Both the position numbers and the translations under genes were made by a program. A stretch of DNA of 64,000 bases. Source: a virus. Lineage: Duplodnaviria > Heunggongvirae > Uroviricota > Caudoviricetes. The DNA lies in IMG/VR virus record IMGVR_UViG_3300033069_001022, positions 26,960-90,959 of that record; one strand, given 5' to 3'. The notes under the pieces are model-generated. The model was not told where the DNA came from. It searched no databases and saw only the letters and a list, made by a program, of their open reading frames with translations. Below, piece by piece: positions 26,738-64,000 of the stretch. Within the stretch, counting starts at the first letter, position 1. Every line of letters begins with the position of its first letter.

Positions 26738-27057
26738 TGGCAGCTAAAAAGAGTGTATTTACTGAGGCAGAGTTGGAATGGGCTGAAACTCAATTACTTA
26801 GCTGGAAAGCTTATGTAGATAATAATCCTCTCCATGAGTTAAAGGATAGAATAGAGTGGAAACCAACTGCTAAAGGTGGTTTATTACCAATGGTAATAGC
26901 TTCTATAGAATCCCAGGGAAAATTTATTCAGGAAACTATGAAGAATTACCTTGCTCTATTAAAAGAAGTAGAGATAATGAGAGAAAAAGAAGAGGCTAAA
27001 AAAATTGCATCAAGAGGCGATAAAGATGTTACTCCTTTTGAAGAGGGACTTATATAA
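26737..27057 (+). CDS. hypothetical protein; positional candidate for the terminase small subunit
   Basis: Directly upstream of the terminase large subunit with a coupled start. No motif support. Confidence 0.35.
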   Translation: MAAKKSVFTEAELEWAETQLLSWKAYVDNNPLHELKDRIEWKPTAKGGLLPMVIASIESQGKFIQETMKNYLALLKEVEIMREKEEAKKIASRGDKDVTPFEEGLI

Positions 27058-33575: not shown

Positions 33576-35126
33576 ATGGGATTACAAACAATACCTGGAC
33601 TTACCGGATTAACCTATGGAAGAGTATCATCTATGGATGGTAGAGCTATTGGTAAATTAACTGATTCAAACCACTTAGAGTCTTTCCATGATCTGGCTCC
33701 TTCAGATTATGACAAGAAAATTATATCTATCTATACTCAGAGTACTTTGTATAGTAATGATTTTCTTGATATGATTAATAAAAGTACTCCTTACTACCTT
33801 GATGGTTTAAGTGATACTTGGAAATGGCAGGTAGAAATGCCTTTCAGATTTCCTAAAATCATTGATGTACCAGATAGTACTCTAAATCAGTCAACTATTG
33901 GTATTGATGGTAAAACATTTGAAATAGTTCTTGATACTATTGTATCTAAGAATATGATTATATCAGTTGGTCATAAGATGTATGGTCAAAACTTTTACAT
34001 CGCTTCTGACCCTACACAATATGGTAGGGGATGGTTACACCAGTGTACTTTAGTATCTGCTAATCCACAAGTGGATTATGTTAATCGTACTCTTTTACAA
34101 CCTGGTATTGATGTAGATCCAATTGACGTTTCTATTGGAGAATTTGACCAGGATTTGGGTGGTCTTCAAAAATTGGCTGATAAAATCACCATGTTTGAAA
34201 CATTGGGTGCAGGTTATGGTTTTGAGCATAAAATCACTGCTTGGGCAGATGATAAAATGTTAAAAGACGAGAATGGTAAACCAAAAGATATTATGGTTTA
34301 CATGCAGAATAGAAGGGGTGAAACAGCTACTACTCGTAATGACATTAAATGGGAACCATTTATTGAGTTTATGATGAGGAAGCAAATGCTGGAAACCAAA
34401 GTTAAGCGTATGATCTGGTCTAAACCAGGTATAGTTAGGACTCATGGTGCAAAGCAAGAACTTAAAAAAGTATCCGCAGGTGTGTATTACAGAATGCGTA
34501 ATTCTGGTAACTATGTACCTTATAATAGGGGAGAACTCTCTGCGAATTTAATTCGTAACGTATTTGGTGATTTGTTTTATCGTAGGGTTGATGTAAAAGA
34601 CCGTAGGGTTAAGATGTACACCAATGAAGCAGGTTTTGACGCATTCCAACAAGCAATTAAAGAAGACGCTTTCAATAGTGGATTAACATTTAATGTTGGT
34701 GATAATGATAAATTTGTTAATGGTAATGGCCAACACCTTCAGCTTAACTTCGCATTTGATTCTTTTGTAACAAGGGAAACTGGTAAAGTGGAACTTGTTC
34801 ACCTGAAAGAATTGGATTTACCTCAAACAAATTTGGAATTTGGACAGAATAAAAAATCAACCCCTATATTTATGGTGTTTGATGTTTCTCCAACTTCAGA
34901 TGGTTCACTGGTAAACAATATCAGAGAAGTTCGTAGGTCTGGTACTCCTAACATGCAGTGGGGTTATATTGATGGTCGTAGGAGTCACTTAGGAGCTTTT
35001 AAATCTCAAGGTTTTAATGCAGCTAATAAATTTCCTGGATACGAAATCTGGATGGAAGACCGTTCAGATGTATTCATCGAAGATCTTAGTCGTTGTGTTC
35101 TTATAGAGGAACTACCTCAGTTTTAA
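33576..35126 (+). CDS. putative major capsid protein (516 aa)
   Basis: Size and position after the scaffold-like gene. Strong double hairpin terminator downstream. Confidence 0.5.
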   Translation: MGLQTIPGLTGLTYGRVSSMDGRAIGKLTDSNHLESFHDLAPSDYDKKIISIYTQSTLYSNDFLDMINKSTPYYLDGLSDTWKWQVEMPFRFPKIIDVPDSTLNQSTIGIDGKTFEIVLDTIVSKNMIISVGHKMYGQNFYIASDPTQYGRGWLHQCTLVSANPQVDYVNRTLLQPGIDVDPIDVSIGEFDQDLGGLQKLADKITMFETLGAGYGFEHKITAWADDKMLKDENGKPKDIMVYMQNRRGETATTRNDIKWEPFIEFMMRKQMLETKVKRMIWSKPGIVRTHGAKQELKKVSAGVYYRMRNSGNYVPYNRGELSANLIRNVFGDLFYRRVDVKDRRVKMYTNEAGFDAFQQAIKEDAFNSGLTFNVGDNDKFVNGNGQHLQLNFAFDSFVTRETGKVELVHLKELDLPQTNLEFGQNKKSTPIFMVFDVSPTSDGSLVNNIREVRRSGTPNMQWGYIDGRRSHLGAFKSQGFNAANKFPGYEIWMEDRSDVFIEDLSRCVLIEELPQF

Positions 35127-36940: not shown

Positions 36941-38080
36941 ATGAGTGAATTTTCTTTAACAACCGTATTTGTAGTTCCAGTAGGAAATACTTTACCTGCC
37001 TCTGGTGGTACAGAATCATTAGCTGATGGTGTTTTTAGCATCAGAAAAGATGAAGCCAGGACTATTGCAAATAATGGTAATATTGCTACAGCCAAATTTA
37101 TACAATTCTTTCAGGGTAGGGACTCCAGTTTAAACTTAGGTTCTAAACCATCAGACAGGATTAAAGCCTCTAAGGTAAAACGCTGGTATAAAGTAACAGG
37201 ATCAGCTACGGCTGTAAATGAAATTTGGCAAGTTTCTGATTTTAGAGCAAAGTGTGGTGAAGATGTAACTTTTACTCTTCGTGGACACTCAGCTTATATG
37301 GATACTATTTCATATAACGGTTTAACAAGGTCAGTAACTGTAAAAGCACCATGTTGTGAATGTGGAGAAGATCCTTGTACAGATGTAGATAATGAAGCTT
37401 TGATTGATTTAATCATAGCAAAAATCTCAACAACTGCTGCTGTACAAAATGGAACTGCTTCTCTTACATTAAGTTCTTTCTTTAATTTCTCTAAATCAGG
37501 AACAGGAGCAGACGCAGTATTACTGGTAGAGTCCAAACCTCTTACAGTATATGGTCAACCATGTGATTTAGCTATTAATCCATACCTTTTTGACCGTGTT
37601 TGGTTCAGGGTTTGGGTAAGTAATGGCCCAGCAACAACTGTTGATTTTGAAGTGTATGATGGTTGTGATATCACTGCTACAACTACCTTGCTTCAGCGTA
37701 GCTCATTCCCTCAGTTAACTTCCAAAGAAGTTGCTCAAATGGAACTTGATTATTATTCTTATCAGTCTCCATATAAGCATCTGTATAGAATGAGTGGTTA
37801 TAACCCATACTTCCAGAGCTATGTAACTGATGGTGAGATTTATGACCAATACGTTATTCAGTTTGATGAGTATAATCAAAATGATTCTTTTGTAGCTAAT
37901 TTGAAAGAAGACGAAAAAGTAATTTTGTATATTCCTCAAGGAGAGACTTCTACCATAGAAACTATGTTAGTAACTTATCTTGGAGCTATAGAAGATTCTT
38001 CTTCAACTGGACCGACTACAACTACTACAACTAGTACAACCAGTACTTCTACTACAACTACAACTACTCTAATCCCTTAA
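36941..38080 (+). CDS. Cys-containing structural protein with C-terminal poly-Thr tail (...PTTTTTTSTTSTSTTTTTTLIP)
   Basis: ORF track. Tail encoded by ACTACAACT-type repeats at 38014-38068. Confidence 0.5.
   Translation: MSEFSLTTVFVVPVGNTLPASGGTESLADGVFSIRKDEARTIANNGNIATAKFIQFFQGRDSSLNLGSKPSDRIKASKVKRWYKVTGSATAVNEIWQVSDFRAKCGEDVTFTLRGHSAYMDTISYNGLTRSVTVKAPCCECGEDPCTDVDNEALIDLIIAKISTTAAVQNGTASLTLSSFFNFSKSGTGADAVLLVESKPLTVYGQPCDLAINPYLFDRVWFRVWVSNGPATTVDFEVYDGCDITATTTLLQRSSFPQLTSKEVAQMELDYYSYQSPYKHLYRMSGYNPYFQSYVTDGEIYDQYVIQFDEYNQNDSFVANLKEDEKVILYIPQGETSTIETMLVTYLGAIEDSSSTGPTTTTTTSTTSTSTTTTTTLIP
38014..38068 (+). repeat. poly-Thr-encoding ACTAC(A/T)AC nucleotide repeat (copy 1 of 3)
   Basis: Near-identical tracts at 39094-39153 and 41993-42025. 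Confidence 0.7.
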
Positions 38081-38111
38081 GGAATAGATAGAAATAAATT
38101 ATAAACCACAA

Positions 38112-38157
38112 GGGGAGCAAAAGAGCAGTCCAAAAGCTCTCTTGCTCCCCTTTTTTA
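38112..38157 (+). terminator. rho-independent terminator GGGGAGCAA...TTGCTCCCC + TTTTTT
   Basis: Seen directly. Confidence 0.65.
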
Positions 38158-38168
38158 GTTTTTAAAAT

Positions 38169-38705
38169 ATGCCAATATTAAAATTAGATTTAGTGTATAT
38201 GGATACGCATAGGGCTGATAGCTTTGCTATTGCTGATACTTCTGTATATCCAACTGGTTTTATAAAGGTAAACCCTACATTAGAAGTAACAGTTCCAGGG
38301 TTTTCCCCTAAAAGTATTACTTTTACACCATCCTCTATACAGGTATATAATAGTAATACTTTAGGAATTACCTGTGATGACTGTGAACTAAGTAATCTAC
38401 CAGATGGAATATACACAGTTAAATATACACTTACTCCTGCATACCAATATTATGTAGAAAGAAGTTTTATGAGAACTAATATGATCTATTCAAAATTAGA
38501 CAGTTACTTCTTAAAACTAGATTTTATGCAATGTGACCAAGCCTTAAAGGAGTCTCAAAAAAAGGTACTAGACACAATAGAGTTCTTTATAGAGGGAGCA
38601 ATTGCGGCTGCTGATAAGTGTATGCCTGGTAAAGCAATGGATTTGTATAACACAGCTAATGACATGCTGAATAAATTTAATAAAAATGGGATGCCAAGTT
38701 GCTAA
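38169..38705 (+). CDS. hypothetical structural protein (178 aa)
   Basis: ORF track. Confidence 0.5.
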   Translation: MPILKLDLVYMDTHRADSFAIADTSVYPTGFIKVNPTLEVTVPGFSPKSITFTPSSIQVYNSNTLGITCDDCELSNLPDGIYTVKYTLTPAYQYYVERSFMRTNMIYSKLDSYFLKLDFMQCDQALKESQKKVLDTIEFFIEGAIAAADKCMPGKAMDLYNTANDMLNKFNKNGMPSC

Positions 38706-38790
38706 ATGTAAAGAATGTCCTGTAAAGATGAAAGCTTGTAAATTAATAGATGGTTTATGCCCTTCATGTAATGCAAAGAAAAAGAAATGA
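38686..38790 (+). CDS. possible 34-aa Cys-rich peptide (MGCQVAKCKECPVKMKACKLIDGLCPSCNAKKKK)
   Basis: Manual translation. Overlaps the stop of the previous gene, and its TGA overlaps the ATG of the next gene. Confidence 0.25.
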   Translation: MGCQVAKCKECPVKMKACKLIDGLCPSCNAKKKK

Positions 38791-39377
38791 AATTAACAAA
38801 CTGTACTACTTGTGGCTCACTAGAAGAATTACTATCAGACATTGATTGTACTATTATATACAATGCCTCAAAAAAATATAACTCAATAGCTTATAATTTA
38901 GGTATATGTTTAAATAGTAGGTTGCTAAGGGATCTATTAAGGTATAAAAGAATATTGAATAATAGATTATATGATGCTACGTATCCTTGTTCTTCTATAC
39001 CTGTTAATAAAATCATCAATCAAGCTTCTTTTATTGTAAGGGAAGAAGATTGCTCACGTTGTAAAGAATGTGATATAGAAGTGTTGGAAAGCACTACCAC
39101 TACAAGTACTACAACCAGCACAACTACTACAACAACCAGTACTACAACTACTTCTTATCCATCAAATTGTTCAAGATATAGAGTAGGTGTTTTTCCTGAG
39201 ATTCCTTTTTCTGCTACATTTAATCTGACTTATTCTCCTTGTGGAATAGATAGACCAACTCCTGTAACTATAACTATAAACACTAAAGAAGTTATAGATT
39301 TGTGTTGTGTACCAGATAGTATATCAGTAGATAGTTTATTTAGTGTTATTTTACTTAACGAAATTTGTATCCCTTAA
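38787..39377 (+). CDS. Cys-rich two-domain protein with an internal poly-Thr linker
   Basis: MKLTNCTTCGS...CSRCKECD...ESTTTTSTTTSTTTTTTSTTTTSYP... Confidence 0.5.
   Translation: MKLTNCTTCGSLEELLSDIDCTIIYNASKKYNSIAYNLGICLNSRLLRDLLRYKRILNNRLYDATYPCSSIPVNKIINQASFIVREEDCSRCKECDIEVLESTTTTSTTTSTTTTTTSTTTTSYPSNCSRYRVGVFPEIPFSATFNLTYSPCGIDRPTPVTITINTKEVIDLCCVPDSISVDSLFSVILLNEICIP
39094..39153 (+). repeat. poly-Thr-encoding repeat (copy 2 of 3)
   Basis: Seen directly. Confidence 0.7.
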
Positions 39378-39388
39378 AATATTAAAAT

Positions 39389-40459
39389 ATGGTTTGTGTA
39401 GATTGTTTAAAAAGTTGTAATGGAATTATCACTCCAGATAAATGTATATCATATACAAATGGTGTTTATCCTCTGTTAGGTATTTGTGGAGATGAATCTT
39501 TGTTTGAAATAGAGGGAATTATCCTAGATAAGTTATTAACTTTGATGGATGGAACTTCTATTACGATAGAAGGCTTAAATACTACTTGTTCCCTAATAGC
39601 TAATATTCAAAGTACTCTTCCTACAACTGTTCCGAATTTATTTCAAACTCTTATAACTGCTTCTTGTAGTTTGCAGAATCAAATTACAAATTTATCAGCT
39701 ATTGTTACAGCAGGATATTCTTTTAATGTAAGCTGTTTATCTGGGATTACTCCTAATTCAAGTAGAGACCAAATAACCCAAGCTGTAATAAATAAGGCTT
39801 GTGATAATGCTTCAAGAATAACAGCAATTGAGAATGATTATGTAAAAGCATCAGATTTATGTGATTTAGTAAATGATTGTATAAATCCTGGTGGAGGCGG
39901 TGGTGGCTCTACTGATACCCAATTTAACACTAGGATGGTTCCATATGCCCCTATACCATATATAGGTTCTTTGTCAAATTTTGATAATACAGGAAAAGGA
40001 TTATCATCTGCTGGTTTTGAAAAAGTATATTTGATGAATGGTTTAAATGGGACTCAGGATTGGAGAGGTAGAAGTCCTATAGGAGCTATTCAAAATGTTC
40101 CTGGTGGAGTATTAGATGCTTCTGTTGACCCATCTCTCCCACAAAATGTAGGTACTAATTATGTTTTAAATCAAAAGGTAGGTGTGTCTTCTGTTGCTCT
40201 TGTAATAAGCCAGATGCCTTCACATACCCATGCTATTTCAGATCCAGGTCATAAACATGGCTATACCCAAGTTAATGGTAATAGCTATACTGGAGGAACG
40301 AGTTCTATTAATGGTAGTGGTGCTAACAATCCTGTAAATACAACTAAAAATACAAATGTATCTAATACAGGTATAACTATAGGATATTCAGGTTCTGGTT
40401 TAGCCCACACTAACTTGCAGCCATCAGCAGCTTGTTACTATATTGTATACATTCCATAA
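39389..40459 (+). CDS. tail fiber-like protein with phage tail-collar (MdpB-type) domain and His-rich HTHxxxxxHKH tip
   Basis: WRGRSPIG...VALVISQMPSHTHAISDPGHKHGYTQ fits the tail-collar core (LRGRxPvG ... QMPxHtH). Gly-rich GGGGGGS hinge. Confidence 0.55.
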   Translation: MVCVDCLKSCNGIITPDKCISYTNGVYPLLGICGDESLFEIEGIILDKLLTLMDGTSITIEGLNTTCSLIANIQSTLPTTVPNLFQTLITASCSLQNQITNLSAIVTAGYSFNVSCLSGITPNSSRDQITQAVINKACDNASRITAIENDYVKASDLCDLVNDCINPGGGGGGSTDTQFNTRMVPYAPIPYIGSLSNFDNTGKGLSSAGFEKVYLMNGLNGTQDWRGRSPIGAIQNVPGGVLDASVDPSLPQNVGTNYVLNQKVGVSSVALVISQMPSHTHAISDPGHKHGYTQVNGNSYTGGTSSINGSGANNPVNTTKNTNVSNTGITIGYSGSGLAHTNLQPSAACYYIVYIP

Positions 40460-40471
40460 AATAATTTAAAT

Positions 40472-42037
40472 ATGTCTTGTCCAGATTGTTCATCAACACT
40501 TCCTTTAACATTTGATATTCAAGCATTTGTGAACAACAGTTGCTCAGAATGTCAGCAACAAAACTGTTTACCTGTAAAATATTTATGTTATACAGGTCCT
40601 GCATTACCTTGTTCTGGAATAGTTACTGGTGATACATTAGAAGTTGCTCTTCAAAAAATTGATGAACAAATCTGTTCAGCAACAGGAGATTACTCTGCTT
40701 ATCAGTTTAATTGCTTACCAACTTGGTGGGGAGAAGCTATAACAAGTGAAGCTGAATTTGTTGATGCTATTACTTTATATGCTTGTGAAATAACTGATAA
40801 TCTTCAGACATTCACAGGTGTAACTTTTCCAGCATATCAATCTGAAGTTGAAGCCCAACTAGATGATATAACTGGACCATCTTTAACATGTACTTCGGCA
40901 GGAGTTACCAGTGTTGATAGTCTATACACTGTTTTAACTAAATATTGTACTAAATTCGGAAGTATAGACACAGCTCTTGATATATCTTCTGTAACATGGA
41001 ATAGTTGTTTTACAGTAGTAAGTCCCCCAACTACAATTGCTGGGGGTTTTAATGAACTTATTACGCAAATATGTGCTGTTAAAACATTAGCAAGTTCTGC
41101 TGCTGTTTTACCTACTTTTAATAACAGTCTAAACTGTTTAGCTGGAACAACTGCTGATACCCTGGTTGAAACTATAGGACTATTAACTGATAAAGTTTGT
41201 GAACCATTCCCTTTTGATCCCTCTCTTATTACATGGGACTGTCTGGATGATACAGCAACTGATTTACAAGAGGCTGTAGAAGTGATTGTAGATGAGGTAA
41301 ATGTAATTAAAAAAGGTCTGATTACAGCAGTATCTGCGGATTTTGTTCTATCACAAACAGATCCAATGGATGCATGTGCAGGATTAACCATAGAACTTGC
41401 TACACCACTAGTAAACAGTGATAGGTTGGTAGCTAGTAATGTATCTGATTTAAGTCCTGGTACTCTTATAGATAAGCTTACAGCAGGTACTAATATTACT
41501 CTGGATGATACCACAACTCCAGGACAAGTTATTATAAATGCAGATAATGACCATTTATTAATTGCTGGTCCAGGGGATGCAAACCCTAATACCTTAATAG
41601 AGAAATTAAATGGAGATACAGAGTCAGGTATAGCAATTACACCTACTTATAATGCTTTTACTGAACAAGTTGATTTAGATTTAACGATAGACCTTCAATC
41701 TTTTCTATCTACCGCTATGACTTTCATAGCTAGTAGTCCTGCTTTACTTGCTCAATTCTGTGCTTTAGTAAGCTCTTGTGGAGCAACTTGTGCTACATTT
41801 GTATACACTATATTTAATGACTCAGGTTCTGATCAAGGTATAACTTGGTTACAATGTGGTAATGCTACCCCAATCGAGATTAACTTACCAAATGGCGACA
41901 CTATTCAAGTATGTGCTGTTCAGGATAGTGTGACTGCCCCAGTTGGGGTTGTAGTTACTCTGGGAGATGCTTGTAGTATAAGTGAAGTACCTACCACAAC
42001 AACTAGTACCACAACTACAACAACATTAAGCCCTTAA
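40472..42037 (+). CDS. Cys-rich Ser/Thr-rich structural protein (521 aa) ending in a poly-Thr tail (...PTTTTSTTTTTTLSP)
   Basis: ORF track. The 225-aa antisense ORF is judged spurious. Confidence 0.5.
   Translation: MSCPDCSSTLPLTFDIQAFVNNSCSECQQQNCLPVKYLCYTGPALPCSGIVTGDTLEVALQKIDEQICSATGDYSAYQFNCLPTWWGEAITSEAEFVDAITLYACEITDNLQTFTGVTFPAYQSEVEAQLDDITGPSLTCTSAGVTSVDSLYTVLTKYCTKFGSIDTALDISSVTWNSCFTVVSPPTTIAGGFNELITQICAVKTLASSAAVLPTFNNSLNCLAGTTADTLVETIGLLTDKVCEPFPFDPSLITWDCLDDTATDLQEAVEVIVDEVNVIKKGLITAVSADFVLSQTDPMDACAGLTIELATPLVNSDRLVASNVSDLSPGTLIDKLTAGTNITLDDTTTPGQVIINADNDHLLIAGPGDANPNTLIEKLNGDTESGIAITPTYNAFTEQVDLDLTIDLQSFLSTAMTFIASSPALLAQFCALVSSCGATCATFVYTIFNDSGSDQGITWLQCGNATPIEINLPNGDTIQVCAVQDSVTAPVGVVVTLGDACSISEVPTTTTSTTTTTTLSP
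41993..42025 (+). repeat. poly-Thr-encoding repeat (copy 3 of 3)
   Basis: Seen directly. Confidence 0.7.
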
Positions 42038-42054
42038 TATAATAATCAATATAC

Positions 42055-42088
42055 AAACCTCCTCTCCATTGGATTGGAGGTTTTTTTG
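42055..42088 (+). terminator. rho-independent terminator AAACCTCC...GGAGGTTT + TTTTTTG
   Basis: Seen directly. Confidence 0.65.
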
Positions 42089-42140
42089 TTTATAAACTAT
42101 AATAGTTACATTATTTTGTTAATGAACAAAAAAAGTTATA

Positions 42141-42204: not shown

Positions 42205-43401
42205 ATGTTAGAGGAATTAAAAGGGTTATTAAAGCATAAAAAGTCTAATTCTTATTATGCAGAAAAATTAGGAATAAGTGTGGAAGAGGTAAAGAAGCTT
42301 AAAAAGCAAATTTCCAAAGTAGTTGGTAAACAAGCTCTTATAGAAGATTTTGTAAGAAAAGTAAATGTTGAGAAAGGTACTTTAGAATCTTCTGTTGAAA
42401 CAACCTTTGAACCAAAAGATGATATTGAACTAGCTGAATTACATAAGATAGATTTAAATAAATACAAGATTTCTACTTACTGGTCCAAGTTAAAACCTAA
42501 TGGACACTTTACTTCCTCTGTATTAGCTTCCTTGAAAAAACCAGAAGATTACTCAGCTAAAGACTTTGCTAAGTTTTTAGAAACTTATGAGCCTCCAAAA
42601 GTATTAATTTCAACAGTTTCTGTAATTGACGGGTTTAATAGAGAAGAAGTAGATGCTGTTCTTTCAATAGCTGATTTTCATCTTGCAAAGAAAACCCTTG
42701 AAGGAGAATCAATACAAGATAAAAAAAATCATTATATATCTGTTGTAACCGATTTGGTTAGAAAAGCCTCTTCTCCTTATCTTAATCTTAGAAAACTAGT
42801 ATTTGTTTTATCAAATGACTTTTTCCACACAGATAATATCCATAACCAAACTACAAATGGCACTCCACAGGAAACACTAGTAGAATATCACAATGAGTAT
42901 GAAGAGGGTTTTGAACTTATAACAAGTACTCTTGTATTTTTAAAACAACATTTCAAAGAAATAGAAGTAGTATTAGTTCAAGGTAATCATGATAGAACTA
43001 AATCATTTTATTTTGCTCATGCACTTGAGATATTCTTTAAAAATGAATCCAGAATAACTTTTCAGAGAGAACACTCTATTACTAAATGTGTAACTCTAGG
43101 AAATACATTCATAGGTTTTCATCATGGTAATTGTAAAATAGATGATTTACCGTTACTATTTGCAACTGGTAAAGACTCCTCTCAATTTGGAAATGCTAAG
43201 TATAGAGAGGTTCACACAGGAGATAAGCACCATTATATGGCTAAAGAAATAAAAGGAGTAAGAATTCAACAAATGCCCTCTTTATCTGGTAAAGATAATT
43301 GGCATAATGACCATAATTTTGTCAATAATATAAGAGCAGGATTAATACTCTTATATCACCCATTAACAGGTAAAATTGGAGAATTTGAAGCAAGAATCTA
43401 A
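42205..43401 (+). CDS. calcineurin-like metallophosphoesterase
   Basis: LSNDFFHTD, VQGNHDRT, GFHHGN, HTGDKHH motifs. Confidence 0.6.
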   Translation: MLEELKGLLKHKKSNSYYAEKLGISVEEVKKLKKQISKVVGKQALIEDFVRKVNVEKGTLESSVETTFEPKDDIELAELHKIDLNKYKISTYWSKLKPNGHFTSSVLASLKKPEDYSAKDFAKFLETYEPPKVLISTVSVIDGFNREEVDAVLSIADFHLAKKTLEGESIQDKKNHYISVVTDLVRKASSPYLNLRKLVFVLSNDFFHTDNIHNQTTNGTPQETLVEYHNEYEEGFELITSTLVFLKQHFKEIEVVLVQGNHDRTKSFYFAHALEIFFKNESRITFQREHSITKCVTLGNTFIGFHHGNCKIDDLPLLFATGKDSSQFGNAKYREVHTGDKHHYMAKEIKGVRIQQMPSLSGKDNWHNDHNFVNNIRAGLILLYHPLTGKIGEFEARI

Positions 43402-43597
43402 AGTAATTTGGATGTCTTTAGAAATGCAAACAGCTTTAAATTTTATTAAAGACATAGTCGATAAAAACTTTGAATACAGTATATTGTATGCAACAGATTT
43501 TAGTAAAGATAATATGTACAATATAGCAAAAGAGATATATGAAAAATCTTATAAAGATACATTACCAATATCATATTTAGAATACTATAAACCATGA
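43376..43597 (+). CDS. hypothetical protein (73 aa)
   Basis: ORF track. Confidence 0.35.
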   Translation: MENLKQESKVIWMSLEMQTALNFIKDIVDKNFEYSILYATDFSKDNMYNIAKEIYEKSYKDTLPISYLEYYKP

Positions 43598-44301
43598 GTT
43601 ACACCAATAGAGATTTTGTCAGCCAGGTAAGGTCAATGTCTAAGTTATTAAGCTCTGACCAGATGATTACTGATAGAGCTATTCTAAGAGAGGGAAAAGA
43701 CGTTGCTAATTTACTGATTAAGCAGTCAATGGATAAAAGGAAATTATGGCAATCACCAAATGTGTTTGCCTTTTTTCCATGTCTGGAAATGGAGAAAGTT
43801 CCTATCTCTGAATGTTGCGAATACATATCTGAAACTATGGTTGCTAAGTCTAAGAAGAAACTTCCTAAGATTGGTGAAGGAACTTGGGGGCTGGCAATAC
43901 AGGGAGTATATGGTCTGGATATGACAAAGAAACTTAAAGAAGTTAATCCAAATAGGTATGCTAATATTCTAAAACTTAAACTAAATGTCAATGATGTATA
44001 TTACTGGGTCTTAAATGATCATCTTTATATATCTAATCCAGATACAAAAGCTGCCAATATGTTTTTATATCCGGCAGAAATTGTAAGTAATGATTTACTT
44101 TTCCCTGGTGAAGATTGTGATTGCATGGTTAAACCACATATTAGTGATTTATGTGCTAACCCTCTAGACCAACCCTTTTATGCCCCATCAGACCGTATGA
44201 CTGATATTAAAAACATAGTTTATGCCTCTTTAATGAAGACATATTTTGGTATAAAATCGGATGAAACTTCAAATAATTTAGATGAATCTACAAGAAAATA
44301 A
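43594..44301 (+). CDS. hypothetical protein (235 aa)
   Basis: ORF track. The antisense ORF 43599..43991 is judged spurious. Confidence 0.45.
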   Translation: MSYTNRDFVSQVRSMSKLLSSDQMITDRAILREGKDVANLLIKQSMDKRKLWQSPNVFAFFPCLEMEKVPISECCEYISETMVAKSKKKLPKIGEGTWGLAIQGVYGLDMTKKLKEVNPNRYANILKLKLNVNDVYYWVLNDHLYISNPDTKAANMFLYPAEIVSNDLLFPGEDCDCMVKPHISDLCANPLDQPFYAPSDRMTDIKNIVYASLMKTYFGIKSDETSNNLDESTRK

Positions 44302-45058
44302 ATACTATTTATATCGTCATATTAGATTAGACAAAAATGAAGTCTTTTATGTAGGTGTAGGTCAAAAGACTAAACATTATACTTCATATAAGAAAGAATA
44401 TAGAAGAGCTTTTGAAAAGAATACCAATAGAACTAATTATTGGAAAAACATAATTAATCAGACAGATTATGAAGTAGAAATAGTATTGGAGTCTAATAAT
44501 TATGATTTTATATTAGAAAAAGAAAAAGAGTTTATAAAACTGTATGGTAGAAAAGATTTGGGATTAGGCGTATTAGTAAATTTAAATAATGGTGGAGGAG
44601 GGAATAAAGGGTATAAATTGCCTAATGACAAAAGAAAACTCCTTTCTGAAAATAGAAAAAATGAATTTAAAAATGGAACCAGGTCTAAAGCATCTTTTAG
44701 TAAAATTGTTTTTAGATATAATCTAGATGGTAAATTTATAGATGAATTTCCTAGTGTAGTGGCAGCAAGTATTTTTACACATATATCTAAAGAGTCTATT
44801 TATAAAGCCACAACTAATAAATCAAAAATATGTGGAGGTTATTACTGGAGTTATAATAAAATGGATATTATTTCTATACCTTGTAGAAGAAAAAATACAA
44901 AAAAAGTGTGTCAGTATGATCTAAAAGGTAACTTTATTAAAGAGTGGGAAGACTTATACGCTATTACTCACTCATTAAATGTAGATAGAGATAGGATTAA
45001 TAATAATTTAATAAATAAATCTAAAAGTTCTTGTGGGTTTATTTGGAAATATAAATAG
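44282..45058 (+). mobile_element. GIY-YIG homing endonuclease (free-standing, with C-terminal DNA-binding region)
   Basis: YYLYRHIRLDKNEVFYVGVGQ ... YKKEYRRAFEKNTNRTNYWKNII ... EKEFIKLYG fits the GIY-YIG core. Confidence 0.75.
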
Positions 45059-45572: not shown

Positions 45573-46430
45573 ATGCATTACTATAAATATACTTTTGAAA
45601 GCCCAGAAAAACTAATAGCTATTGTCAAAGAAGAGTTTAAATCTTTCTTTGATACAGGGGCTATTGACGATACCATGTTTCCAATATACCTTTCTAAATG
45701 TTTAGATAGACTTGGAAGAGGTTCCTATAGAATAAATTCTGCTATTCTTACAATGGATGATTTTCAAGCAAGATTACCAGATGATTTTTATGCTGTGAGA
45801 GAAGCTTGGTTATGTACTGATGTAACTTCTGCCTATAGACTCCCTGGAGCAGATTACCAACAAGTGGAATCTGTATCTACTAGGTTAGATACACCAGATG
45901 TATATTGTGATAAATGTAGTGAATGTGCTTTACCAGATATTATCAAAGCTGTATATAAAACTACTCACACGGCTTTTGCACACTATAAAAAACAATATCT
46001 TTTAAAACCAGGCACTATATGGAGTAAAGGAGAATGCTCAGAGGATTGTGCAAATTTCCATTCACATGGTCCAGAATCATTTGATATACATGACAATAAA
46101 TTCACAGTAACTTTTAGAGAGGGTAAAGTATATCTTGTCTATTACTCAAAATCATATGATTGTAATGGGTATGAAATGATACCAGATAATTATAGATTAA
46201 AGGAATTTATTGAAGCTTTTCTTAAAATGAAAGTGTGGGAACAGGTTGTTAACAACAATACAGACGAAGGCTTAACTAAGTACTACCTGAATCAATTAGA
46301 TAGGTATACAAGAATGGCTGATGAGGCTTACATTATAGCAGATATAGAAAAGAAGAAAGAGACTGTTTATGATATAAACAGAAAAATTATAAGGGATTTG
46401 AATCGTTTTCAAAAATATGAGATAAGATAA
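45573..46430 (+). CDS. hypothetical Cys-containing protein (285 aa)
   Basis: ORF track. Confidence 0.5.
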   Translation: MHYYKYTFESPEKLIAIVKEEFKSFFDTGAIDDTMFPIYLSKCLDRLGRGSYRINSAILTMDDFQARLPDDFYAVREAWLCTDVTSAYRLPGADYQQVESVSTRLDTPDVYCDKCSECALPDIIKAVYKTTHTAFAHYKKQYLLKPGTIWSKGECSEDCANFHSHGPESFDIHDNKFTVTFREGKVYLVYYSKSYDCNGYEMIPDNYRLKEFIEAFLKMKVWEQVVNNNTDEGLTKYYLNQLDRYTRMADEAYIIADIEKKKETVYDINRKIIRDLNRFQKYEIR

Positions 46431-51209: not shown

Positions 51210-51728
51210 ATGGAACTGTTTAAAATTACACAAAGTAAAAACCCTTTTGCAACAGAATCTGTAATTAAAATACTTAATTATAGAATAGAACAAGAAGAAC
51301 AATCTTCTAGATTATATCACTCAATGTCCCTATGGTTAAATGATAATGGGTTTATGGGGGCAGCTAAAGCTTGGCAAAAGGATGCTGATGGGGAAATGGA
51401 ACACGCTAACTGGGCTAAAGAATATCTTCTAGATATGGGTGTTAAACCTACACTACCAGCTCTTCAAAAACCACCACATGATTTTACTGGATTATGTGAT
51501 ATAATAAGAATGTCTTTTGAACATGAAATAGTGGTTACGAAACAATGTAATGATTTAGCTAACAATGCTTTGAAGACAGGTGATAATCTTCTGTATCAGT
51601 TGGCTAATAAATTCCTACAAGAACAACAGGAAGAACTAGGTAAATTACAAACTTTACTTGATAAACTAGAAGCTTTTGGAGAAGACAAAATTGCACTTAG
51701 ATTACTTGATAATGAATTAGGCTCTTAA
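51210..51728 (+). CDS. ferritin-like (non-heme ferritin/Dps superfamily) protein
   Basis: Four-helix-bundle pattern with ferroxidase-site-like residues: ...EEQSSRLYHSM...EMEHANWAKEYL...FEHEIVVTKQ...FLQEQQEELGKL. Confidence 0.6.
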   Translation: MELFKITQSKNPFATESVIKILNYRIEQEEQSSRLYHSMSLWLNDNGFMGAAKAWQKDADGEMEHANWAKEYLLDMGVKPTLPALQKPPHDFTGLCDIIRMSFEHEIVVTKQCNDLANNALKTGDNLLYQLANKFLQEQQEELGKLQTLLDKLEAFGEDKIALRLLDNELGS

Positions 51729-58013: not shown

Positions 58014-61000
58014 ATGCCCGAAGAAAAATTACCTGTAAATTTATCTGGACCAACACATCTTGGTGAAAATGGATTAGTACCTTTGGTTACACCAGATTTA
58101 CCATCTATTAGTACAGGAACAAGAGCTTACCAGGAATCTAAATCTGGATTTGATGCATTATTTAATAGTGTCAATCCAAAACCTGGTTTTGAAGCATCTT
58201 CTAAAATGCAATCAGAAGTAGACCCTTTACTTTCTGGCAGATACAATAATGTGTATTATGATGCTAATAATGAGGATTTATATGGTAGAGAACAAGGGTT
58301 CATGGATAAAGCTGTTAATGGCACACTAAAAGGTTTAAATCTTGCAGCCACTACTTTTGTGGGTGGCTTAGGTACTGTATATGGTATTGGTAAATCTATC
58401 AGTACAGGGAAGTTATCTGATGTGTGGGATAACGAAATATTAAGAGGTATAGACGACTGGAATAAGAAAGTAGATAATGAATACCTACCTAACTATTACA
58501 CAGATAATGAATCTAATGCAGCCTGGTATTCTTCTGACAATTTTACAACCAACTTTTTATTCGATAAACTGGTAAAGAATTTAGGATTTGCTGTGGGAGC
58601 TATCTACTCAGGTAACTTAATGGCTAAAGGACTAAGCTTTGCTGGAGAAGGGATAGGAACAATGTTCTCTTCTTTAGGTAAATACACTGAAGCTTGGAAG
58701 AGCTTTTCAGATGTTAACAAATATACTGCCAGATTATTTTCACAAGGTAAGAATATAGAAGCAGCAGAAGTTTTGCAGAAAGGTATTAAATCTATATCTG
58801 ATATAGAAGATGTAAGTGCTAATATGCTTAAAATATCTAAGCAGTTTAACAATATAGCTGGTGCTCAAGATTTTACAAGAAGGTCTTTAATGGCTTTATA
58901 TTCTTCTGCTGGAGAATCTTCTTTTGAATCTATTGGTACAGCAAGAGCTTTTAGAGAAAAAGAAATACAATCTTTTAAAGATAAGTATGGCTTTGATCCT
59001 TCTGCTGAGGAAATAGCTAAAATAGATGCACTAGCCTCTAAAGCAGGAAATTTTTCTTTCTTGGCTAATATGGCTGTTTTATCTGCTACAGAGTTTACAC
59101 AATTACCATATTTAATGGGAAGTTCTTATAGAACATCTAAAGCAGCTTCTAATGCCTTTAGAACTACTGAAGATGTAGCTGTTAGAGAAGGTAAATATGT
59201 AGCTAAGGAATTGGGAAAAGTAGGTAAGACAACTAAGTTTTTAAAGACTTATGTTTTTGACCCTAAAGAATCTCTTCAGGAATATTTACAAACATCCATA
59301 GATGTTGGTGTGCAGGATTATTATGACAAAGCATATAAAGGAACCGAAGCCAAAGACTTAACTCGGGCTTTTATTGATACTAGTTTAGATGCTTTGGGGC
59401 ATACTTTAACATCTAAAGAAGGTGGTGAAAGTATATTACTTGGTGGTATATCTGGTGGCCTTATGCAGATAAAAGGAAATAGACAAGCCAATAAATATAA
59501 GAAAACAAATACAAATTCTTTTCTTGCTGAATTGAATGTGCCTGAAAATACATTTACAAATGCTTTTGCTGACAGAGTTAATTCTTTGCAAAGAAGTATA
59601 AGTATTCAACAAGAAGCAGAAGGAGCTATAGAATCTGATGATAAGAAAGGATTCTTGGATAAGAAATTTGATCAGACTCATAACTATATTTCTACTAGAG
59701 TAAAATATGGTAGGGCAGATATGGTATATGATGAAATTGAAGCAAGAAGGTTACAATCTGTCAGTGAAACAGATTATAAAGCTTTACAGGCTAAAGGTGG
59801 AGCACCTATGGGTTTATCCCGTATTGATTATATTAAGAAATTAGATGATTTTGAAAAACACACTAAAGCTGTGGAATCTCTGTATGAGTCTATGACTTTA
59901 AGGTATCAAGGTCAGTTAAATACTGACGGCACACGGAAGTATTCTGATGAGGTTATTGACAAGATGATATATGGTGCAGCTAAGGTAAATGATTATGACA
60001 AGAGGTTAATTGAAATAAGTAATGAAATATCTACACATGGTATTGATACTACCAGTATTAATGAGTCTTTAAAACAATCAGCTTCTTGGCAGGAAGGTAA
60101 GCAAGAAGATGATATTAGAGAAGGAGGAGTTGTAAAATCTATAACAGATACAGTAGCTAATATAGAAGCTTTAGATGTTACACCAGATATAAAGCAAGAC
60201 CTTAAAGATAGTTTTTCTGATTATATTGAGGTAGCTTTAAGTAGGAAGAAAATCCTAGGGGAACTTAATGAGATTATAAAAACACCTGAAGTATTTAATG
60301 AGCCTATAGTAGATATAGTTGCAGCTACTAGCGAAGGTGAAGTGGGTAAACCTAAAACCATTAAAATCACTACTAAAGATGGTGAAGAAGATATCGAGAT
60401 AGGTACTGAATACTACTTAGGAGATTATGTTAAAAAAGATGCTAAAGGAAGAGATGTATATTTATTCCCTAAATTTACTGTGCTTGGAGAAAATCCAGAT
60501 GGTACTATACAGGTAAAAGATAAGGATGGTGTGAGAAATGTGTCTAAGGAAGAATTTATAAAGTATAAACCAGGTAAGGTATCTGATACACTCAATAATA
60601 AGAAAGCAAAGTTTTATCTGGAGAATATTAATAATGTATTTGAGTTCAATTTTGGTAAAGGTAAAAAAAGAAAAGGTAGATTAAGGTATTCAACAAAGGA
60701 TAGGATACTTGAATTTGTATATGTTGACGGGAAGAAAACAAAAGCAATAGAAGTTACAGGAGATCAGTTTATAGCTAAAGAAGGGTTTAAACAAGCTCTT
60801 ATTACTAAAGTAGGTACATTAACTGCTGCTGAAGAAAAGACTTTACAGGACTTTGCCAAAGAAAAAGATGATAGAATACAAGCTAAAAGAGCTGTAAGGA
60901 TACAGATTATAGAATCTCTTATAGATGAAACTGGAACAAGAATTGAGAAGATTCAAAAGGATTTAGTTGCTAAGCATGAGCAGTTATCTAAAACTGTAGA

Positions 61001-64000
61001 AGAGCTGGATAAACTATCTAAAAAGATAGAGTCTGGGGATATGACTAAAAGAGGTAACTTTAAAGCTACCACTAGAAATGCTATCAGGGCAGCTAATAAA
61101 TTATCTAATTTAAGAGATAACCTCACTACAGAGATACAAGCTTTGGAAAGTGAAAAAGAAGAGTTGGAATTTAATTTAGAATACTTCTATGATCTTGCTC
61201 AGAATATTGATGAATTACCAACTGGATCTGCTGATTTTCAGGAGGAGATAAATAATCAGGCTATTGATTTAGGTATCCTTATAGAGGAGACGGGTAAATC
61301 TATTAATCAAGTCACCAGTTTATTAGAAAAGACAGAAAGTGCTTTAGATACTGCTATTGCTTGGATACAAGAAAATATAAGATTATTTGAAAATGTATAT
61401 CCTAATGTACCTACTGACATATACAGTCAGGAGTTCATTGATTTCATAAAAACCAATCCCAATTTCTTAAAAATAAGACCAGATTTTAAACAAGATTTGG
61501 CTGAACTTGAGAACATGATTGGGGAAATGGAAGAGTCCGAAATAAAACCAAGTGAAAAACTAATATCTGAACTACAGGAAAAACTTAAAACTCTATTACC
61601 AGAACTTTTAGATTTAGAGAAACAATATAAAGCAAAGGAAGCTATTGTACAAAGATTTGCAGATATAGCCGAAGAATATAGAAGAGCTGAAGCAGCTAAA
61701 AAACAAGCTGAAGCAGATGCTAAATTCTTACAAGGTATCTTTGGAACAAAGGTAAATCAACCCTCCAGTGATAATACTGATACTAAAGGAGATATAAAAA
61801 GTGAAGAGGAATCTCCTAAAAAGAGAATAACTTCTATTGCGTCTACAGTGGATGAAAGTAAATCAGTTAACCAAACTGTTTTAGAAAATGTAAGAAGACA
61901 CAATAGTTTCCTGAATAATCTATCCAGAATGCCATCGGAGAAAGCCTCTGAAATAAGGGTAACTTTGGTGAATAAAGATAATGCTCCTGCTGGTGTAATA
62001 GATAAAGCTTTAGCAGGTTATGATGTTCCTGATGTAGACAATACAGTTGTAGCCATATACTCCAATACAGATGGTAAATTTGTAGATGTAAATGGTAAGG
62101 CTACTGAAAATCCTGATGAGTATGTTATATCCGTAATGGCTTCAGATAAACTAACTTCTACAAGAGGAGATAGATATTCTGTACCTAAAGATGTAAATGA
62201 AGAGGATTGGCATAATTGGTATAAAGGTATGAGAGCTAAATGGTTAGCTGCTACTGAACCAGAGATATATGAATTCACAGTTAGTGGAGGTATCCCTCAA
62301 AGGAACAAAACTAATATAGCTTACAATGTAACTGAAAATCTTATAAGCCAAGAACAAATAGGACAAAAGGGACTTGTTCAGGTATCTATAGATGGTACAA
62401 TAAATGTTAATGGTATAGCTAAGAAATATACTCCTGGCAGAGTTGTACTTGTAAATGGAAATTCTACAGCTTTCCTGAATAACAGAAACTTTACAGACCA
62501 GGAAGCAGAGGTTATATATAAGTCATTCCAAACATTAGCTGCCACAAAGAAAGGAGAAAAATGGAATTCTTCTGTAGTTAAATTCTTAAGGGATGTGATG
62601 TTATTTGGAGACCCTACCACAGGGGATAAACCAAAAGCTGCTGCAAGGAATCAGTTCTGGATTGATAATAAAGGGCAACTGAATATTGGACCAGAAGGTT
62701 TTAAAGCATCATTTACTCCAGAATTCCTTGCTCTACCAGAAGTAAAGGCAGGGCTTATTAAAATCATAAAAGGGGCTTATCAAAATGTAAATGCAGCTAC
62801 TCTAAAGAGTAATGATAAATTCGTAGAGATAACTGGCTTCAACAAAGAAGGTGTTCCCCAAACAAGGACTTGGCAATCTTATCAGCATTACTTGCTTTCT
62901 CCTACTTTTGAACTGGATGAAACTCTGGATGACAAAGAAGAGAATGGTAAGAAGAGGTCTGATGTTCCTTTAACAAATAATTTACAATTACCTATAGATG
63001 GTTCTGAACCATTTGTACAAAAGTATTCTACTATAGTTCCAAGGGAAGATGAAGTTGTGGAAACCACTAAGAAGAAAAAAGCTGCGTCTAAAAAGAATGT
63101 TGAAGAACCAGAAGAAGATACTTTTACCAGTGATGAAGAGATTGTAAAAGAGGAACCAAAGTCTAAACCTAAAACCAAGAAAGTAGGTTTACTAGCTGCT
63201 GCACTAGATGAGGCACAAAAAGGAGAGTCTATTGAACCAAAGAAATCTGCTAGTGTCAGAGATTTTACAGATGAGATAGAAGATGCTGCCCAAGCTTTTG
63301 TTATGCAAATTCCTGGAACTAAAGGAAGTTCCCAGAATGATATGGCTTTAAGGTTAATGACAAAAACTGAAGTAGAAAGAATGTCAGATGAAGACTATAC
63401 CTACTTTAAAGAATGGATGAAGACTAATCTACCTGGTGTACCGGTTACTATAACTGATCAACTTATTCAGGTAATGGGGACAAGTAGATTAGCTTGGGGA
63501 AGATTTACAAATGCTGGTATTGAAATATTTGAGAGAGCAGAAAAGGGTACAGAATTTCATGAAGCCTTTGAAGCTGTTTGGAATACACTTTTAGATGATG
63601 TGCAACAAATTGATTTATATGAAGAGTTCTCCAATCAGGAAGGTACTATATTTGATAGAGATACCCTAACTACTGTACCAAAAAGTGAAGCCTCTTTCCA
63701 GCAAGCTAAAGAAGCTATAGCTGATGAATTTGGGGAATTTATGAGAGATGTAAAATCTACTCCTCCAAAAGGTATTATCGGTAAATTCTTTAAAATGTTA
63801 AAGGATTTACTTAAGTACTGGATTGGTTCAAAGAAGTATAGATTATTTACAGATATACATAATGGTAAATTTGCTAAAAAGCAAAAGGTAAGAGAATTTA
63901 ATGGTAATGCTTATAGCCAGGTTATTCCTGGAACAGACTCATTAACTACCAGAGAGATAGTAGAAGATATGTCTGCACAGGTGGCTTTTGTTCTATTAGG
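58014..64000 (+). CDS. giant ORF, open from the ATG at 58014 to the window end (at least 1995 aa, 3'-truncated)
   Basis: Manual translation MPEEKLPVNLSGPTHLGENGLVPLVTPDLP... continues without a stop in that frame. All track ORFs in this span are short minus-strand antisense ORFs. Confidence 0.6.
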   Translation, partial: MPEEKLPVNLSGPTHLGENGLVPLVTPDLPSISTGTRAYQESKSGFDALFNSVNPKPGFEASSKMQSEVDPLLSGRYNNVYYDANNEDLYGREQGFMDKAVNGTLKGLNLAATTFVGGLGTVYGIGKSISTGKLSDVWDNEILRGIDDWNKKVDNEYLPNYYTDNESNAAWYSSDNFTTNFLFDKLVKNLGFAVGAIYSGNLMAKGLSFAGEGIGTMFSSLGKYTEAWKSFSDVNKYTARLFSQGKNIEAAEVLQKGIKSISDIEDVSANMLKISKQFNNIAGAQDFTRRSLMALYSSAGESSFESIGTARAFREKEIQSFKDKYGFDPSAEEIAKIDALASKAGNFSFLANMAVLSATEFTQLPYLMGSSYRTSKAASNAFRTTEDVAVREGKYVAKELGKVGKTTKFLKTYVFDPKESLQEYLQTSIDVGVQDYYDKAYKGTEAKDLTRAFIDTSLDALGHTLTSKEGGESILLGGISGGLMQIKGNRQANKYKKTNTNSFLAELNVPENTFTNAFADRVNSLQRSISIQQEAEGAIESDDKKGFLDKKFDQTHNYISTRVKYGRADMVYDEIEARRLQSVSETDYKALQAKGGAPMGLSRIDYIKKLDDFEKHTKAVESLYESMTLRYQGQLNTDGTRKYSDEVIDKMIYGAAKVNDYDKRLIEISNEISTHGIDTTSINESLKQSASWQEGKQEDDIREGGVVKSITDTVANIEALDVTPDIKQDLKDSFSDYIEVALSRKKILGELNEIIKTPEVFNEPIVDIVAATSEGEVGKPKTIKITTKDGEEDIEIGTEYYLGDYVKKDAKGRDVYLFPKFTVLGENPDGTIQVKDKDGVRNVSKEEFIKYKPGKVSDTLNNKKAKFYLENINNVFEFNFGKGKKRKGRLRYSTKDRILEFVYVDGKKTKAIEVTGDQFIAKEGFKQALITKVGTLTAAEEKTLQDFAKEKDDRIQAKRAVRIQIIESLIDETGTRIEKIQKDLVAKHEQLSKTVEELDKLSKKIESGDMTKRGNFKATTRNAIRAANKLSNLRDNLTTEIQALESEKEELEFNLEYFYDLAQNIDELPTGSADFQEEINNQAIDLGILIEETGKSINQVTSLLEKTESALDTAIAWIQENIRLFENVYPNVPTDIYSQEFIDFIKTNPNFLKIRPDFKQDLAELENMIGEMEESEIKPSEKLISELQEKLKTLLPELLDLEKQYKAKEAIVQRFADIAEEYRRAEAAKKQAEADAKFLQGIFGTKVNQPSSDNTDTKGDIKSEEESPKKRITSIASTVDESKSVNQTVLENVRRHNSFLNNLSRMPSEKASEIRVTLVNKDNAPAGVIDKALAGYDVPDVDNTVVAIYSNTDGKFVDVNGKATENPDEYVISVMASDKLTSTRGDRYSVPKDVNEEDWHNWYKGMRAKWLAATEPEIYEFTVSGGIPQRNKTNIAYNVTENLISQEQIGQKGLVQVSIDGTINVNGIAKKYTPGRVVLVNGNSTAFLNNRNFTDQEAEVIYKSFQTLAATKKGEKWNSSVVKFLRDVMLFGDPTTGDKPKAAARNQFWIDNKGQLNIGPEGFKASFTPEFLALPEVKAGLIKIIKGAYQNVNAATLKSNDKFVEITGFNKEGVPQTRTWQSYQHYLLSPTFELDETLDDKEENGKKRSDVPLTNNLQLPIDGSEPFVQKYSTIVPREDEVVETTKKKKAASKKNVEEPEEDTFTSDEEIVKEEPKSKPKTKKVGLLAAALDEAQKGESIEPKKSASVRDFTDEIEDAAQAFVMQIPGTKGSSQNDMALRLMTKTEVERMSDEDYTYFKEWMKTNLPGVPVTITDQLIQVMGTSRLAWGRFTNAGIEIFERAEKGTEFHEAFEAVWNTLLDDVQQIDLYEEFSNQEGTIFDRDTLTTVPKSEASFQQAKEAIADEFGEFMRDVKSTPPKGIIGKFFKMLKDLLKYWIGSKKYRLFTDIHNGKFAKKQKVREFNGNAYSQVIPGTDSLTTREIVEDMSAQVAFVLL

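Follow-up and report, generated by a model that had tools for sequence, protein, structure and literature searches.

Probable poly-threonine joints and a capsid protein tail of nearly fixed length in the predicted virion proteins of an uncultivated crAss-like phage

Introduction

What role do nearly pure threonine runs play in the structural proteins of a phage? The question is raised by three neighbouring genes in a 64 kb stretch of tailed-phage DNA (IMG/VR record IMGVR_UViG_3300033069_001022, positions 26,960 to 90,959; the window hereafter), which represents about half of a genome of roughly 120 kb with a G+C content of 32%. We refer to the products of the open reading frames (ORFs) 36941..38080, 38787..39377 and 40472..42037, all on the + strand, as proteins A, B and C, and to their Ser/Thr runs as tracts A, B and C. 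The original prediction for this locus took all three for Cys-rich receptor-binding or distal tail proteins, with tracts so similar in DNA that they would recombine and shuffle domains among their genes. Our analysis points instead to poly-Thr as, probably, the standard hydrophilic joint of this lineage in its virion surface proteins, where it serves as the seam of fibre cassettes and as a tail of fixed length on protein A.

Judged by its genes, the window belongs to a distant, uncultivated crAss-like phage. Among GenBank phages no close relative was found, either by megablast of the region or by tblastn with A and C, and the major capsid protein (MCP) matched only Leptolyngbya phage Lbo-JY46 (25%) and csAssE-Sib. 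The lineage is nonetheless very large and abundant in the environment, with at least 544 IMG/VR stretches encoding relatives of A, which were searched for with a Cys cluster of that protein (P-C-C-x-C-G-x-D-P-C) as the pattern. Poly-Thr(-Ser) runs, which are probably spacers, are a hallmark of this lineage and are limited to predicted virion surface proteins. For detailed comparison with the window we used loci of relatives that are designated L001, L004, L006, L008, L009, L010, L014 and L016. Features of the window are collected in Table 1.

Table 1. Positions of the features discussed in the text, numbered from the first letter of the window
Feature	Position	Strand	Description or basis
MCP	33576..35126		Pfam Crass_capsid, 5e-26
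Protein A, 379 aa	36941..38080	+	auxiliary capsid protein (crAss001 gp36-like) with C-terminal poly-Thr tail
Tract A	38015..38068	+	18 aa, TTTTTTSTTSTSTTTTTT; C-terminus of 36941..38080, followed by LIP-stop
L-I-P end of protein A	38069..38077	+	P379 invariant in A-family alignment
Terminator-like hairpin and U-run after gene A	38110..38158	+	RNA fold -27.1 kcal/mol, z -6.3
178-aa virion protein at the crAss001 tail hub A (gp38) position	38169..38705	+	phrog_31752 'virion structural protein', E 8.6e-7; synteny
Protein B, 196 aa	38787..39377	+	core of ~88 aa, CxxCxxC, poly-Thr, four-Cys module, IP; alignment with relatives
C89-x2-C92-x2-C95 cluster just before the linker of B	39051..39071	+	read from translation
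Tract B	39090..39155	+	22 aa, STTTTSTTTSTTTTTTSTTTTS; internal linker in 38787..39377
Four-Cys module of B, ~60-67 aa, C128..C194	39168..39368	+	module hidden Markov model, E 7.9e-8 over residues 143-189
356-aa fibre	39389..40459	+	poly-Gly linker and His-rich C-terminal domain; phrog_8469, phrog_8763 tail fibre/tail protein, E 1e-12
Protein C, 521 aa, fibre-like	40472..42037	+	N-terminal Cys-rich anchor, helical shaft, beta region, four-Cys module, poly-Thr stub
Four-Cys module of C, C440..C501	41789..41974	+	small beta-sandwich
Tract C	41993..42025	+	11 aa, TTTTSTTTTTT; C-terminus of 40472..42037, followed by LSP-stop
L-S-P end of protein C	42026..42034	+	
Terminator-like hairpin and U-run after gene C	42055..42090	+	fold -15.7 kcal/mol, z -3.9; consensus scan 42063..42080
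CrAss_Ring_2 match	43594..44301		
CrAss_Ring_1 match	45573..46430		

Ser/Thr tracts in peptide and DNA

A six-frame scan of the 64 kb found exactly three long Ser/Thr runs, each in frame in a + strand ORF. Runs of 11 residues or more are expected by chance 2.6e-6 times per approximately 10,000 residues, and the longest run seen in 300 within-protein shuffles was 9. The tracts are thus far above chance, which confirms the peptide-level observation, including the placement originally described at the C-termini of A and C (ending TLIP and TLSP) and inside B. Searches of the literature for linkers in the virion proteins of phages that are rich in threonine or made of poly-threonine turned up nothing pertinent, and the use of Thr over Pro or Gly may simply reflect an A+T-rich genome.

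All of the tracts are built of ACT, ACA, ACC and AGT codons, in one orientation and within 4 kb, and Tandem Repeats Finder (TRF) reports a period-9 ACTACAACT pattern in tracts A and B. These properties would suit a model in which the three are DNA repeats of almost the same sequence that, by recombining with one another or by gene conversion inside the genome, shuffle domains among three receptor-binding or tail proteins. However, the near-identity in DNA was not borne out. For Thr, the tracts use ACT, ACA and ACC in proportions equal to those in the rest of the genome. The best in-frame ungapped identity between tracts is 76-80%, and the longest exact stretch common to any pair is 11-14 nt. 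When the same peptides were randomly back-translated with the codon usage of the window, the probability of reaching at least the observed value was 0.41-0.85 for the longest match and 0.10-0.98 for identity. Since the back-translated sequences are equally or more similar, the tract DNAs resemble one another because they encode poly-Thr at a genomic G+C content of 32%, and the tracts are protein-level features rather than related DNA repeats. With at most 14 identical bases, and with a similarity at the level of codons only, they are poor substrates for homologous recombination with one another.

Comparison with relatives points the same way. Orthologous tracts keep their peptide and differ in codons, giving no sign of concerted evolution: tract A is an identical 18-aa peptide in the window and in L001, with 8 of the 18 codons differing synonymously. 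A codon comparison of A tails over many loci is partly circular, as tails of Ser and Thr only were selected for it, and was used for codon scrambling alone. Moreover, were tracts A and C to cross over as direct repeats, the gene of the 178-aa protein, B, the 356-aa fibre and most of C would be lost, and A is itself a capsid protein, as detailed below. Recombination among the three tracts, as originally proposed, is therefore largely refuted and we consider it very improbable.

The low complexity and 3n-periodic repeat of the tracts could also suggest slippage-prone simple-sequence (contingency) loci, in which changes in length would switch or tune expression. This would call for near-perfect tandem repeats that vary in length among close relatives, but the codons are mixed, TRF matches within tracts are 64-78%, and every change is in frame. 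Furthermore, the length of tract A is tightly kept, and relatives with a protein C no more than about 81% identical to that of the window still have the identical tract A peptide. We give slippage almost no credence.

As a separate observation, the Ser codons of the window tracts are AGY in 7 of 9 cases, as against 26% elsewhere (binomial P 0.002). This bias is probably lineage noise, as relatives (L004, L006) use TCN codons at the same positions, and we draw no conclusion from it.

Exchange of distal cassettes at poly-Thr

The original prediction also called for a comparison with related phages for domain swaps at linkers, and across the clade this comparison supports such swaps. The 78 ORFs with an internal poly-Thr tract join 10 N-terminal clusters to 35 C-terminal clusters, with one 74-aa anchor being paired with as many as 18 unrelated distal modules. 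In two pairs of relatives the junction can be placed to within a few codons. Between L009 and L010 the flanking genes are 79-86% identical at the nucleotide level; homology ends approximately 10 nt into the poly-Thr that follows a 72-aa anchor, and returns at the end of the replaced cassette. Similarly, in the giant ORFs at the muzzle position of L010 and L016, homology breaks off no more than about 13 nt from where a poly-Thr starts and picks up again in the next gene. The presence of poly-Thr at anchor/module junctions, together with two breakpoints at tract starts, supports linker shuffling across the clade.

The giant muzzle-position proteins of L010 (14243..19330) and L016 (13824..19604) carry C-terminal poly-Thr-linked modules with up to 8 tracts. 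The 1543-aa homologue in the window has no poly-Thr-linked extension. After the giant ORF, both relatives encode small proteins consisting of a conserved 72-75 aa N-terminal domain (MTVLITLT...), poly-Thr and a variable module. Loci L009 (1838..2086) and L014 (6038..6283) also contain ORFs of 81-82 aa that are a 72-aa fibre anchor with a poly-Thr stub and nothing more, and these match the first part of a 215-aa anchor, poly-Thr and module protein in L010; such stubs may be either functional or remnants.

An arrangement of this kind has well-known counterparts. Modular phage receptor-binding proteins consist of a conserved N-terminal anchor and exchangeable distal domains; in those of Streptococcus thermophilus phages, collagen-like repeats flank the variable region, and in T-even gp38, glycine-rich motifs delimit the variable segments. 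The clade of the window shares with them the constant anchor, the low-complexity junction and the hypervariable distal module. It differs from the S. thermophilus proteins and T-even gp38 in that the junction is homopolymeric Thr rather than Gly-X-Y or Gly-rich, and from modular receptor-binding proteins generally in that poly-Thr also occurs as a terminal stub with nothing beyond it. The Pro/Thr-rich interdomain linkers ("PT boxes") of secreted bacterial glycoside hydrolases, which are exported and often glycosylated outside the cytoplasm, offer a second parallel. They too are hydroxyl-rich, low-complexity spacers that join small folded binding modules to a larger body, although the proteins of the window have no signal peptide by inspection, their runs are almost Pro-free and two of the three tracts are C-terminal. 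As a whole, the finding belongs to kinds that are already known: linkers of low complexity, receptor-binding proteins of modular build and the decoration of capsids.

In the model that we propose, poly-Thr in B and C would join a conserved, virion-anchoring part to four-Cys beta-sandwich modules, or would end the protein after one of these. The joint itself is probably extended. At this seam, distal cassettes would be gained, lost or replaced between related phages over evolutionary time.

Proteins B and C

The family of protein B gives a picture of such a gain. The bare core, 87-107 aa in length, is what 77 of 80 loci encode. Aligned relatives form a series: core only; core, CxxCxxC and a poly-Thr stub; core, poly-Thr and one module; and the same with two modules. 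The window and L001 have the one-module form, whereas B of L008 consists of core, poly-Thr, two modules and a further poly-Thr stub. The CxxCxxC cluster was found in the aligned relatives that bear poly-Thr or an extension. This graded series indicates that B of the window is a derived form that has gained the linker and a four-Cys module of about 60 aa. In terms of our model, a core at the hub B position would have acquired poly-Thr and one module. A scan of IMG/VR with the B protein confirmed zero relatives.

One family of four-Cys domains of about 60 aa includes both the domain at the C-terminus of B and the last but one domain of C (consensus CxxYxVxNxxG...YxxC...VCAxxGSV...GxC). No Pfam model covers this module. 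An exhaustive profile search detected it in 450 representative protein clusters, and a single protein can hold as many as 11 copies; a word-index homologue search with the module alignment gave 2 proteins, and the counts given here come from the exhaustive search. Poly-Thr is present in 49 of the top 146 module proteins, and of the 357 copies of the module, 106 have a poly-Thr tract no more than 12 residues away. AlphaFold2 (AF2) predicts the module of C as a confident small beta-sandwich (residues 442-500) followed by disordered poly-Thr. This beta-sandwich module, frequently found in tandem, represents an uncharacterised family with a presumed role in binding. The four-Cys modules are presumably stabilised by disulfides, by analogy with the crAss001 tail.

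A high Cys content had been claimed for all three proteins. B (6.6%) and C (4.6%) do stand out from the proteins of the window, which have 1.35%, but A lies below the 3% cut-off that we used. Both B and C are plausibly tail-associated, and in being Cys-rich they compare with crAss001, whose tail is disulfide-stabilised.

Protein C has no significant PDB match and no Pfam or PHROG family; its AF2 model is elongated, with a predicted local distance difference test score (pLDDT) of 80.7 and a predicted template modelling score of 0.30. Its 193 homologues have variable C-termini: they are conserved to about residue 440 and then diverge, which is the constant anchor and variable distal part expected of a modular fibre. 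In a set of 120, a poly-Thr tail ends 78, further domains follow poly-Thr in 10, and the other 32 have different C-termini with no tract. The tripeptides or dipeptides that come after the internal linkers of C homologues (AIP, IAP, AAP, LVP, PP or GP) resemble the terminal LIP, LSP and LAP, and so the tails look like linkers with nothing attached. It is plausible that C of the window ends in such an "open" linker, beyond which other phages carry further domains.

Terminator-like hairpins 3' of both genes indicate that the tails of A and C are true C-termini. We also considered that poly-Thr-ended ORFs might be fused to downstream modules by readthrough or frameshifting, and rejected this, as the terminator-like hairpins after A and C are strong.

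The neighbouring 356-aa protein, a collar-type fibre, has no poly-Thr and shares its N-terminal anchor of about 130 residues with protein C (hhalign of residues 13-143 against residues 35-172 of the C family: probability 96.9%, E 1.8e-10). It is this neighbour alone, and not C, that matches tail-fibre PHROGs. Around residues 170-175, between its N-terminal shaft and the His-rich C-terminal domain, lies a poly-Gly run (NPGGGGGGSTD) that is present in L001 and L008 and missing from the other relatives, making it a second type of homopolymer linker in this gene block. The ending of the fibre, YI(M/V)YIP, is kept across relatives. More generally, four of the five consecutive structural proteins in 36941..42037 end in Pro (TLIP, CIP, YIP, TLSP), compared with 3 of 81 other ORFs of the window (Fisher P 8e-5).

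If poly-Thr marks the seams of fibres in this way, it supplies a simple sequence rule by which the boundaries of domains, and receptor-binding cassettes that can be swapped, may be located in a huge group of uncultivated phages, one that would be useful for predicting host range and for engineering chimeric fibres.

Protein A and its tail

Protein A is a capsid auxiliary protein and not a receptor-binding or distal tail protein, which leaves the original assignment to the tail standing for B and C only, and there as plausible. It has the two-domain, PH-like and FliD-like fold of a gp36-type protein, and its gene lies, as expected for such a protein, downstream of the crAss-type MCP gene and upstream of the tail hub and ring genes. 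The order of the genes runs parallel to that of crAss001: MCP, gp33, gp34/35, the auxiliary protein gp36, hub A gp38, hub B gp39, rings and muzzle. Homology to gp36 was not found at the level of sequence (identity about 11%), and a PDB sequence-profile search with the A family was empty, as was a search of Pfam for a family matching A, B or C. In crAss001, gp36 is the auxiliary capsid protein (PDB 7QOF; PMC10172136). Proteins of this type sit on the outer capsid surface, contact the MCP's A-domain and are present in nine copies per asymmetric unit. The gp36 of crAss001 ends ...GLTIATL, without poly-Thr and without a terminal Pro, whereas protein A carries an extra 18-aa Ser/Thr tail and LIP, which are conserved in its own clade. 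One of three presumed tail proteins is thus reassigned to the capsid, with an appendage that is missing from the structurally characterised gut crassvirus.

The tail itself is under tight constraint. Of 119 full-length homologues, 106 have a Ser/Thr tract of 16-21 residues (median 18), and in 97 of these exactly three residues come after it. The tracts contain 1 non-Ser/Thr residue among 1926 positions. The final residue is Pro in 118 of the 119, the commonest endings being LIP (68), LTP (12) and LVP (11). Ser is placed position-specifically, with enrichment at -15, -12 and -10 and pure Thr at the ends of the tract, and a sister clade has VWP or AAP in mid-tract. In further IMG/VR loci the tail is carried by 78 of 79. 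These data identify the tail of A as a selected, length-constrained appendage and not as a site of shuffling. We propose that this Ser/Thr tail, almost constant in length and closed by a tripeptide of the hydrophobic-Pro type, would act as a conserved structural or functional appendage, and that it would be on display once per major capsid protein if the stoichiometry of crAss001 applies.

The same regularities would also be compatible with a tail that folds, either as a two-stranded Thr hairpin or as a strand zipping onto neighbouring subunits, with L-I-P plugging a pocket; such a structure would cement capsomers or fill the hexon pocket that takes head fibres in crAss001. The restricted length, the three terminal residues with their near-invariant Pro, the Ser-enriched middle between pure-Thr ends and the mid-tract VWP or AAP of the sister clade are all in keeping with this. 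AF2 also draws strands at residues 361-367 and 370-376, with a turn at the most Ser-rich position; its pLDDT of below 50, however, is too low for the model to count, and a monomer prediction is blind to contacts between subunits. That gp36 of crAss001 has no tail means that a capsid can be built without one. Taken together, we judge a folded tail to be unlikely.

Several points weigh against poly-Thr being simply a spacer and seam. The virion membership of A, B and C is predicted from genes alone. Placing the 178-aa protein at hub A and protein B at hub B has synteny as its sole basis, and the two identities are offered accordingly as suggestions. The pLDDT is below 50 in all of the tracts, and so the models do not fix their conformation. 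For A, the fixed length and position-specific Ser of the tail mean that "spacer" may be an incomplete description. As to mechanism, the right-hand breakpoints fall at gene ends, and poly-Thr microhomology therefore need not be what drives recombination; if functional chimeras are selected for, the junctions could come to lie at any linker. With these points considered, we still hold the joint-and-tail interpretation of poly-Thr to be the probable one.

For the two hub positions, comparison beyond gene order yielded little. The 178-aa family gave a weak match to gp38 over 22 C-terminal residues only (hhalign, E 0.013) and nothing in a PDB sequence-profile search, and the 178-aa protein itself has no poly-Thr. 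The B family did not match gp39 by hhalign. In size, the 178-aa protein compares with 215 aa for gp38, and the B core of 88-107 aa with 114 aa for gp39; the gene order agrees.

Protein A has, in addition, the Cys cluster noted above as a search pattern (residues 137-146, at 37349..37378), in which 79 homologues show no variation at C138, C141, P145 and C146. The cluster might bind a metal or form a disulfide knot.

Possible glycosylation

The original prediction had pointed to the Thr-rich linkers as classic O-glycosylation sites in Bacteroidetes, a rationale that does not fit these tracts. The general O-glycosylation system of Bacteroidota does target Ser and Thr, as would be the case here. 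It acts, though, on a D-(S/T)-(A/I/L/V/M/T) sequon, in the periplasm and on non-cytoplasmic proteins (PMC12871550). The three tracts contain no Asp, nor does one directly precede any of their Thr residues, and the sequon is absent accordingly. The N-termini of A, B and C (MSEFSLTT..., MKLTNCTT... and MSCPDCSS...) have no hydrophobic stretch resembling a signal peptide, by inspection and without a predictor. The proteins thus appear to be cytoplasmic. The Bacteroidota system is consequently mismatched in both motif and compartment.

A different route would be for a soluble glycosyltransferase, encoded by phage or host, to O-glycosylate the poly-Thr runs in the cytoplasm, giving capsid and fibres a mucin-like coat for protease protection, adhesion or shielding; this would be compatible with a spacer role. 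Such a process would explain the strict use of Ser and Thr, as hydroxyl residues are selected almost exclusively in the tail of A (the single exception in 1926 positions) in spite of near-randomised codons, and the tracts lie on predicted outer-layer or fibre proteins. There are precedents. Cytoplasmic O-glycosylation without an oligosaccharyltransferase occurs on flagellins and adhesins (PMC12871550), and mycobacteriophage Che8 has a glycosyltransferase that O-glycosylates its own capsid protein (Freeman et al. 2023, as cited in PMC13445384). Like Che8, the phage of the window has a predicted capsid-surface protein that could present Ser/Thr acceptors to a cytoplasmic glycosyltransferase. Unlike Che8, which encodes its own enzyme, it has no glycosyltransferase family detected in the 64 kb, which are about half of the genome: scanning of the structural genes with Pfam or PHROG gave no such match, and the matches of the 40 other ORFs of the window (E<=0.001) were to NUMOD, HNH, methyltransferase and HU only. 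Glycosylation of the tracts is putative, and we assign it a low probability.

A more speculative possibility combines these themes. The fixed-length tails of A and the fibre joints might together be acceptors for cytoplasmic O-glycosylation, making a "mucin-like" particle, or the tails of neighbouring subunits might zip into an ordered element between capsomers, in place of the head fibres that gut crassviruses have. We regard this as quite unlikely. The strictly conserved Ser/Thr tail on a capsid protein is nevertheless a concrete candidate, open to test, either for glycosylation of the virion or for a new element that cements the capsid. The conserved poly-Thr tail of a crAss-type auxiliary capsid protein and the unannotated family of four-Cys modules are both unexplored ground.

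Neighbouring genes

The terminase and portal of the window match PHROGs, and downstream of the ring genes lie the gene for the 1543-aa virion protein and then a giant ORF that leaves the window. The latter (58014..64000, at least 1995 aa, cut by the window end) occupies the place that gp47, the gene of the virion RNA polymerase, has in crAss001, and has no Pfam match.

A gene resembling a DNA-repair exonuclease (42205..43401; phrog_704, E 1e-49, with weak metallophosphatase Pfam matches) lies within the structural module, between the fibre and tail ring genes, and this position is kept in relatives. Between the CrAss_Ring_2 gene and the next tail genes is an ORF (44282..45058) with NUMOD1, a domain typical of homing endonucleases, and with an N-terminus that looks GIY-YIG-like by eye. 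In crAss001, gp37 and gp41 are annotated as group I intron endonucleases and occupy comparable places. Finally, the gene of a ferritin-like protein (51210..51728; Pfam Ferritin, E 2.6e-24) is flanked by those of the 1543-aa protein at the muzzle position and of a 1180-aa lytic/internal virion protein, and its ORF holds the one other short Ser/Thr patch of the window, TTSSSKTTT (51452..51478).

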